Assembly (NCBI RefSeq): GCF_003334255.1
Contig: NZ_QOWU01000045.1
Source of the DNA: Escherichia coli
GTDB lineage: Bacteria; Pseudomonadota; Gammaproteobacteria; Enterobacterales; Enterobacteriaceae
Reading direction: 5' to 3' (one strand)
DNA: 44,959 nucleotides
Within the stretch, counting starts at the first letter, position 1. Each line of letters starts with the position of its first letter. The notes below the pieces were generated by a model. That model was not told where the DNA came from and did no database searches. It was given only the letters and a program-made list of their open reading frames with translations. The position numbers and the translations under genes are program-made. Below are positions 44,007-44,237 of this stretch, one piece after another.

Positions 44007-44237
44007 ATACGGGATTTTTAAAAATCACTAAAGAACGCCCAAGAGCATGTGTTTTCTTTAGTAGAATCAAACTCTTGAATTTCCATGTCATATGAAAATC
44101 GGCAAAGTTCATATGTAACAAAGTGTCCCAACCATGCCCCAAAATGCCCCACAACAGACATTTTTGTCCCATGCATGCCCCAAAAAAATCACTTCCCCTC
44201 ACCTTGACACTGTTTATACATACAGTTAAAAATAATA

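Follow-up and report, generated by a model that had tools for sequence, protein, structure and literature searches.

What are the clustered direct and inverted repeats that lie just inside the junction at which a prophage interrupts yecE? The question arises from a stretch of Escherichia coli DNA of 44,959 nucleotides (assembly GCF_003334255.1, contig NZ_QOWU01000045.1), the whole of which is referred to here as the window. A first-pass annotation, made from the sequence of the window, had listed a 9-bp inverted repeat, three copies of ATGCCCC and two copies of TGTCCC close to the yecE breakpoint. Three readings had been offered for these repeats, namely arm-type sites of an integrase, sites for accessory proteins such as IHF or Xis, and repressor operators. 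When the repeats were compared with those of related phages, the direct repeats between 44124 and 44182, which share the heptamer TGYCCCA, were identified as very probable arm-type sites for the N-terminal domain of the integrase (Int), located in the int-distal arm, the equivalent of the lambda P arm.

Location of the Junction and the att Core

Identity with intact yecE stopped at position 44006, leaving the first 96 bp of the gene, and prophage DNA began at 44007. The chromosomal genes at this end of the window are aspS (minus strand), yecD and the start of yecE. Positions 43950-44959 were 99.9% identical to the record of phage P-EibC (AF151674, ECOR-9), and in phage records of the same type this junction is found at the end opposite int, beside tail-fibre and effector genes. 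The window end is the int-distal junction of a P-EibC/P27-like lambdoid prophage in yecE.

A complete, near-identical prophage was found in strain G6/7 (NZ_CP060061). For the other junction, this genome (99.8% identity) was used in place of that of the window's strain. There, xis, an int of 437 aa and, past this prophage int, the 3' part of yecE are all found at a distance of about 57 kb. The int stop codon is placed 19 bp ahead of the core copy at which yecE resumes. The yecE fragment is called as an incomplete CDS by PGAP in G6/7. Many structural genes of the G6/7 prophage, including portal, capsid, terminase and tape measure, are annotated as frameshifted, which could be real decay or an assembly error.

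At the other junction of G6/7 the core reads CCCGTCATGTTAACTGCGTG, and 11 bases are identical between the two copies (TTAACTGCGTG). The common core of both junctions is CCCGTCAC/TT/GTTAACTGCGTG. Nakamura et al. 2021 (PMC8112680) described a 21-bp yecE att site that matches this core, as does the 11-bp att of P27. TGYCCCA is not contained in the window copy of the core. The coordinates of all features are given in Table 1.

Table 1. Features at the int-distal end of the prophage, listed by position in the window.
Feature	Coordinates	Strand	Description
yecE (DUF72) 5' fragment	43911..44006	+	Cut by prophage insertion; ORF start overlaps yecD stop
att core (crossover region)	43987..44006	+	CCCGTCACTTTAACTGCGTG; int-distal junction, attR in lambda convention
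Near-core block	44014..44048	+	ATTTTTAAAAATC-ACTAAAGAACGCCCAAGAGCAT; conserved family-wide; holds left arm of the inverted repeat
9-bp inverted repeat	44027..44062	.	ACTAAAGAA 44027-44035 / TTCTTTAGT 44054-44062; 18-bp spacer
Candidate IHF site	44065..44077	+	AATCAAACTCTTG; exact match to WATCAANNNNTTR
Candidate Xis (DUF1233) sites	44088..44118	+	TCATATGAAA / TCGGCAAAGT / TCATATGTAA; abut first heptamer pair on its core-proximal side
Arm-type integrase sites (predicted), proximal group	44124..44151	+	TGTCCCA 44124-44130, TGCCCCA 44135-44141, TGCCCCA 44145-44151
Arm-type integrase sites (predicted), distal pair	44165..44182	+	TGTCCCA 44165-44171, TGCCCCA 44176-44182
dinI-like promoter with two LexA boxes	44204..44253	+	-35 TTGACA 44204-44209; -10 ends 44233; LexA boxes 44210-44225 and 44238-44253
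dinI-like gene (82 aa)	44269..44517	+	First prophage gene; PHROG 189, RecA filament binding protein DinI, E = 9e-27

Heptamer Repeats in the Int-Distal Arm

The direct repeats had originally been described as two interleaved families. The three ATGCCCC copies were found exactly at 44134, 44144 and 44175, and the second TGTCCC copy exactly at 44165-44170, while the first TGTCCC copy had to be moved by one base, to 44124-44129 from 44125-44130. The copies themselves are therefore real; as separate units they were not retained, both being forms of TGYCCCA. The unit was read in this register because the A that follows the hexamer is invariant and the base that precedes it varies. In ten related arms, this A was present at all 36 sites, and it lay outside the search pattern.

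Five copies of the conserved heptamer are present in the window, all on the plus strand and 118-176 bp from the core. They follow each other at spacings of 11, 10, 20 and 11 bp and therefore face the same side of the helix. Only the lineage of the window and PhiR49_2 has the third copy.

As a single word, ATGCCCC was not enriched in the window (7 copies compared to 6.1 expected), nor was ATGCCCCA enriched as a single word in the prophage. Five TGYCCC hexamers occur within 62 bp on one strand; none of 200 simulations of the window (first-order Markov) gave more than three. The pair TGYCCC-N4-5-TGYCCC was missing from 190 of these 200 simulations. Only the clustered, paired arrangement is the non-random part of the pattern.

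The Int-Proximal End of the Element

If the repeats served the integrase, a search at the other end of the element was the check that the first-pass annotation had proposed. The same repeat family was indeed found there, as a tandem pair (TGTCCCAatgaTGCCCCA) of the same orientation that falls within the int 3' end. In G6/7 this pair is part of the final 65 nt of int, and its distance from the core is 66-82 bp. Across approximately 110 kb (the 45-kb window and 65 kb spanning the G6/7 prophage and its flanks), the paired pattern was observed only at the two prophage ends, and always on the plus strand.

On the int side, one pair was present at the int 3' end in every phage examined. Among 54 distinct int 3' tails from IMG/VR, both hexamers were kept in 53, and the 4-nt spacer between them took at least eight forms. 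Translated, the pair reads [VA]P-x-M-P in most members, and the rest of the C-terminal tail of Int is variable. As the int-proximal copies are mostly coding, their conservation, considered alone, could be partly at the protein level, which weighs against the arm-type reading. In the Rac-like phage 683R6, however, whose Int is 42% identical and which uses the ttcA site, the pair is located just past the int stop codon, and the constraint on the pair is therefore attributed to the DNA level.

Near the int stop, after the int-tail pair, a conserved TTATTAAAATCAGTAAGTT was also observed, which resembles an IHF site with one mismatch.

Comparison of Related Arms

Eleven int-distal arms were aligned, anchored at the core end: those of the window, PhiR49_2, CharmingMan, P27, Stx2_EH2201, Stx1_14040, JLK-2012, Mulock, 933W, phi80 and mEp237. 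CharmingMan is a free phage with a contiguous attP, Mulock is a Klebsiella phage, and the arms of phi80 and mEp237 are fossil copies. Stx2_EH2201 and Stx1_14040 target yecE, JLK-2012 targets yehV and 933W targets wrbA; the Rac-like phage 683R6 targets ttcA.

The distance from the core end to the start of the first TGYCCCA pair is 115-123 bp in all eleven arms. Where a second pair is present, it follows 31 or 41 bp after the first; these two offsets differ by one helical turn, and helical phase is therefore kept. The spacing of units across the arms is 10-11 bp, and the sequence around and between the heptamers differs widely. The number of pairs per arm varies as well, with three in 933W, one in Stx1_14040, and two plus an extra unit in the window. 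The heptamer pair is independent of the core, since phages of the yecE, yehV, wrbA and ttcA sites all carry it.

A comparison with other phages of yecE had been recommended in the first place, together with the warning that the repeats might be missing from related elements at the same site. In P27, CharmingMan, PhiR49_2, Stx2_EH2201 and Stx1_14040, the surroundings have diverged and the distance of the heptamers from the core has not changed, and the repeats were present in every related element examined, so that this objection fell away. One observation that does count against the arm-type reading comes from Yersinia phage YP3, where the first 1.2 kb past int contained no distal-arm pair in either orientation.

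Two changes in the number of units were seen directly. An exact tandem duplication of 31 bp (aaacaaccacatttTGCCCCaatagTGCCCC) gives the 933W arm its three heptamer pairs, and Stx1_14040, compared to Stx2_EH2201, has lost exactly one 11-bp unit. The number of arm sites therefore changes in steps that keep the phase.

Of 5426 complete E. coli genomes, 835 contain a related arm that can be detected.

Coding and Regulatory Readings of the Repeats

Three simpler readings were considered together, namely that the repeats are repressor operators, that they are chance or low-complexity sequence, or that they belong to a small conserved gene. Short ORFs can be drawn across the arm, and the P27 record has a hypothetical CDS of 58 aa annotated over it. 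No conserved ORF spans the repeats, in agreement with the earlier statement that no coding feature explains them. No CDS was called by PGAP in the three genomes checked, no PHROG match was obtained for the ORFs (including the homologue of P27 L58), and the 1- and 10-bp indels between relatives would break any reading frame. The "hypothetical protein" listed in some genome matches is the truncated yecE fragment.

As regards chance, the heptamer cluster exceeded all 200 simulations. The option of repressor operators, which had been left open initially, had to be dropped, as neither the immunity region nor any other part of the prophage outside its two ends contains the motif pair; the repeats are direct and lie at the prophage end, approximately 48 kb from the XRE/HTH repressor genes. 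Neither the heptamers nor the inverted repeat match LexA boxes (CTGT-N8-ACAG). Taken together, this group of readings is given a negligible probability.

A second regulatory reading is suggested by the gene that adjoins the arm. The heptamers could be sites for an activator, or an UP-like element, of the SOS-controlled dinI-like promoter 22 bp downstream: the last heptamer ends at 44182 and the -35 element begins at 44204, and a dinI-like gene adjoins the arm in several relatives. P27, 933W and Mulock, however, lack a dinI gene downstream and yet have the heptamers at an unchanged distance from the core, and the same pair is present at the int end, far from dinI. The spacing of the heptamers is fixed relative to the core and not to the promoter. 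A role in dinI regulation is thus highly improbable, and arm-type sites remain the preferred reading.

The promoter itself is sigma-70-like and adjoins the att arm without being part of it. Since the two LexA boxes overlap it, the first prophage gene is predicted to be SOS-induced. Equivalent LexA sites are annotated in the phi80 and VT1-Sakai records, and the dinI-like gene is annotated in relatives.

Further features were recorded around these genes. A third match to CTGT-N8-ACAG was located at 23283-23298, just upstream of a 96-aa ORF on the minus strand (22973-23263) and beside a 392-aa ORF on the plus strand. The two ORFs resemble yebG and purT, respectively; yebG belongs to the known SOS genes, and the arrangement appears to be an ordinary one. 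By transfer from the P-EibC record, a stem-loop terminator follows the dinI-like gene at 44837-44869, and the 3' end of eaaC (autotransporter or S6-peptidase-like) occupies the minus strand from 44884 to the window end. According to the same record, the immunoglobulin-binding gene eibC is located further inside the prophage, outside the window.

Integrase, Excisionase and Covariation with the Heptamer

Int (437 aa, from the near-identical G6/7 prophage) contains an Arm-DNA-bind_2 domain (PF12167) at residues 7-70 with E = 2e-23 and a Phage_integrase domain at residues 202-395. Conservation within the family is highest in the arm-binding domain, at 76-97% identity compared to 53-92% for the core-binding domain. 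Judged by these identities, the more variable core-binding region is consistent with the different chromosomal targets. Over its length, Int is 68% identical to the Int of 933W and 28% identical to that of BPP-1. No solved structure was found for close relatives of Int.

A more distant case was provided by the Pseudomonas phage phiCTX, whose Int is 31% identical and whose PF12167 domain has diverged (E = 3e-20). On its int side, three copies of GTTCCCA are present at 11-bp spacing, 45-70 bp before the annotated core, and on the far side two copies lie 70-90 bp after the annotated core. As far as sequence comparison can tell, the layout is the same with a related but different heptamer, and the motif appears to change with the arm-binding domain.

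Xis, the second protein of interest, is a DUF1233 excisionase of 78 aa with homologues in every family member. Those of 933W and EH2201 are 46-47% identical to it, and that of the Rac-like phage 28%.

The Region between the Core and the Heptamers

Accessory proteins of the IHF or Xis kind had been proposed for the repeats as a whole. For the stretch that separates the heptamers from the core this proposal is plausible; for the heptamers, which are found on both arms, it is very unlikely. Three elements of this segment were considered in addition to the inverted repeat.

The near-core block was found at a fixed distance from the core in 11 of 11 arms, including 933W despite its different core, and is a possible accessory-protein or bending site. 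The candidate IHF site is one of two exact matches to the IHF consensus in the 45-kb window. In the related arms, a consensus match with 0-1 mismatches was seen at the same place on inspection of the alignment.

The third element, between 44088 and 44118, varies in a more informative manner. Its dyad CATATG...CATATG becomes CATACG...CGTATG in P27 and in the related arm L104, with both halves changed and the dyad retained. At the same position, EH2201 and JLK have three copies of TCGACGAA and 933W has two copies of CGTTCTTT, and these repeats are spaced by 10-11 bp. The three types of repeat go with three types of Xis, in a small sample. The repeats at 44088-44118 may thus be regarded, with moderate confidence, as candidate Xis sites.

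It is at this point that the strongest competitor for the heptamers has to be weighed, namely that they are sites for the DUF1233 Xis or another directionality factor rather than for Int. Xis sites are typically tandem direct repeats with a spacing of approximately 10 bp in the int-distal arm, and, as described above, Xis homologues accompany every member of the family. The heptamers, however, are found on both arms, including positions inside or beside the int 3' end. In lambda and other characterised systems, Xis sites are confined to one arm. Moreover, the heptamer is invariant across the range over which Xis drops to 46-47% identity (933W, EH2201) and 28% (Rac-like), and it is the separate set of repeats beside the heptamers that changes with the Xis type. 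The competitor was accordingly judged very unlikely. What it leaves behind as a point against Int is that Xis is homologous across the family, and a shared site for Xis or a host factor is conceivable.

The inverted repeat requires separate treatment. It is present, with TTCTTTAGT exactly at 44054-44062 as first annotated, while ACTAAAGAA is located at 44027-44035 and not at 44028-44036. Statistically it is unremarkable: approximately 6 such 9-bp inverted repeats per 45 kb are expected by chance, and 41 overlapping 9-mer matches were counted in the window. It is noteworthy only for its position beside the core and its partial conservation.

An independent function of ACTAAAGAA/TTCTTTAGT, either as a dyad for an accessory protein or as a sib-like RNA hairpin on int transcripts that cross attP, was considered unlikely, yet with clearly more in its favor than the alternatives discussed for the heptamers. 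The repeat lies 21-56 bp from the core, its left half falls in the family-wide block (44014-44048), which is also found in 933W, and CTAAAGAA/TTCTTTAG is kept in most members of the subfamily of the window, P27, CharmingMan and phi80, in which part of the spacer varies. Against this, the arms of EH2201, JLK, Mulock and 933W lack the repeat as a whole; single mismatches in PhiR49_2 and P27 are not accompanied by compensatory changes; and the chance expectation given above applies. As regards a hairpin, the RNA fold of 44007-44085 was no better than that of shuffled sequences (z = -1.58), no U-tract terminator follows the repeat, no terminator-like site is present in the arm, and no Rfam match to the repeat was obtained. 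The Rfam scan of 43800-44959 gave a single weak match, a chance hit to a microRNA model outside the region. The inverted repeat may be an accessory-protein dyad site within the subfamily of the window, P27, CharmingMan and phi80.

Proposed Role of the Arm

The heptamers thus occur only on the two arms, at fixed position and in fixed phase, are conserved amid diverged sequence, and co-occur with the arm-binding domain. An integrase with a separate arm-binding domain, a motif on both arms that differs from the core, conservation independent of the core and constrained phasing are features expected of arm-type sites at the level of sequence, and all were observed here. Among the readings first offered for the direct repeats, the integrase arm-type reading was therefore the one upheld, by their occurrence on both arms and their conservation in yecE phages. 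The assignment is purely comparative, as no binding or recombination data for this integrase family were found in the searchable literature. The binding of the heptamers by Int, the binding of the intervening elements by IHF and Xis, and the order of events are what we infer from these sequences.

In the proposed scheme, the core-binding and catalytic domains of Int would act at the yecE core (43987-44006), and the N-terminal domain would hold the heptamer arrays, with two sites in the int 3' end and four or five in the distal arm, 118-176 bp out. Bending proteins would fold the arm back, by which the arm-bound Int would reach the core. This bending could be done by IHF at 44065-44077 and, in excision, by Xis at 44088-44118. 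In the integrated state, the arm would be the half-site that pairs with the int-proximal junction to excise the prophage.

Fossil Junctions in Other Phages

Phages phi80 (JX871397, 2920-3240) and mEp237 use another integration site and have an unrelated int, yet both contain a fossil yecE junction, approximately 1.2 kb from their own attP. It consists of an N-terminal fragment of yecE, an intact-looking core, a full arm with four TGYCCCA and a dinI-like gene. This arrangement suggests that phi80 and mEp237 descended from an aberrantly excised yecE prophage.

A further case concerns the "attB-in-prophage" site inside PPompW, which Stx2 phages use (PMC8112680). In PPompW_132418 (LC567822, approximately 620-900), the att site consists of a yecE-derived core that continues into a P27-like distal arm. 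This arm contains the CATACG...CGTATG dyad and decayed heptamers (GCGTCCCA, TGTCCCA, TGCCCTA and CGTTCCA), and the PPompW site is therefore regarded as a fossil int-distal junction.

Implications

The rule formed by the heptamer, its spacing and its distance from the core could be used to set exact limits of attP, attL and attR for a very common integrase family, which includes the Shiga-toxin phages of the 933W type and Rac. The heptamers are also targets for mutagenesis in studies of Stx-phage excision and of prophage-in-prophage integration. Cross-talk is possible among co-resident prophages that have common arm sites and different core specificity.

A broader proposal is made tentatively, and with slightly more doubt than confidence. 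According to it, the 11-bp tandem pairs of TGYCCCA on both arms would be the undescribed arm-site code of the whole enterobacterial DUF3596/IntBPP-1 branch (933W and other Stx phages, P27, the P-Eib phages and Rac), shared across yecE, yehV, wrbA and ttcA. If this is true, co-resident prophages could load each other's integrases on their arms, and the fossil junctions of phi80, mEp237 and PPompW could be partly pre-assembled recombination partners instead of plain copies of attB.

Comparison with Known Systems

Arm-type sites are a textbook kind of element, and the principle is not new. The attP of lambda has the arm sites P1 and P2 in the P arm and P'1-P'3 in the P' arm, the IHF sites H1, H2 and H', and the Xis sites X1, X1.5 and X2. 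The present system resembles it in its tyrosine integrase, whose N-terminal arm-binding domain is separate, and in its layout. Short tandem sites are placed near int (here at 66-82 bp from the core) and distant ones in the other arm (here at 118-176 bp); an IHF consensus and repeats of the Xis type separate the distant sites from the core, as in the lambda P arm. It differs in the motif (TGYCCCA compared to C/AAGTCACTAT in lambda) and in the domain, which is PF12167 and not of the lambda type. In addition, all sites have one orientation, whereas P2 of lambda is inverted; they are arranged in 11-bp pairs; no IHF-like site splits the distal groups; and the int-proximal sites are inside the int coding sequence.

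With its pairs of direct repeats on each side of the core, the arrangement is closest to P2 and 186 (PMC3448106). In those phages the repeat consensus likewise tracks the type of N-terminal domain, to which the pair of TGYCCCA here and GTTCCCA in phiCTX may be compared. The integrase subgroup and the motif are different, and the directionality factor is a DUF1233 Xis and not Cox or Apl.

The yecE att site of Nakamura et al. 2021 (PMC8112680) has the same core sequence and belongs to the same integrase lineage. That study defines the duplicated core and its yecE origin, and the words "arm" and "binding site" are absent from its text. More generally, no description of arm sites for the DUF3596/PF12167 integrase family was found in the open-access literature, subscription journals being largely outside this search.

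The family itself has been classified as the IntBPP-1 subgroup (Smyshlyaev et al. 2021, PMC8138268), which includes the integrases of Stx2a phages, Gifsy-2 and BPP-1, examples described there as putative integrases. Its arm-binding domain is given as DUF3596/PF12167, the same as in the Int described here. The classification there concerns proteins, and arm-site sequences are not part of the sections consulted; the heptamers would represent the DNA side of this family.
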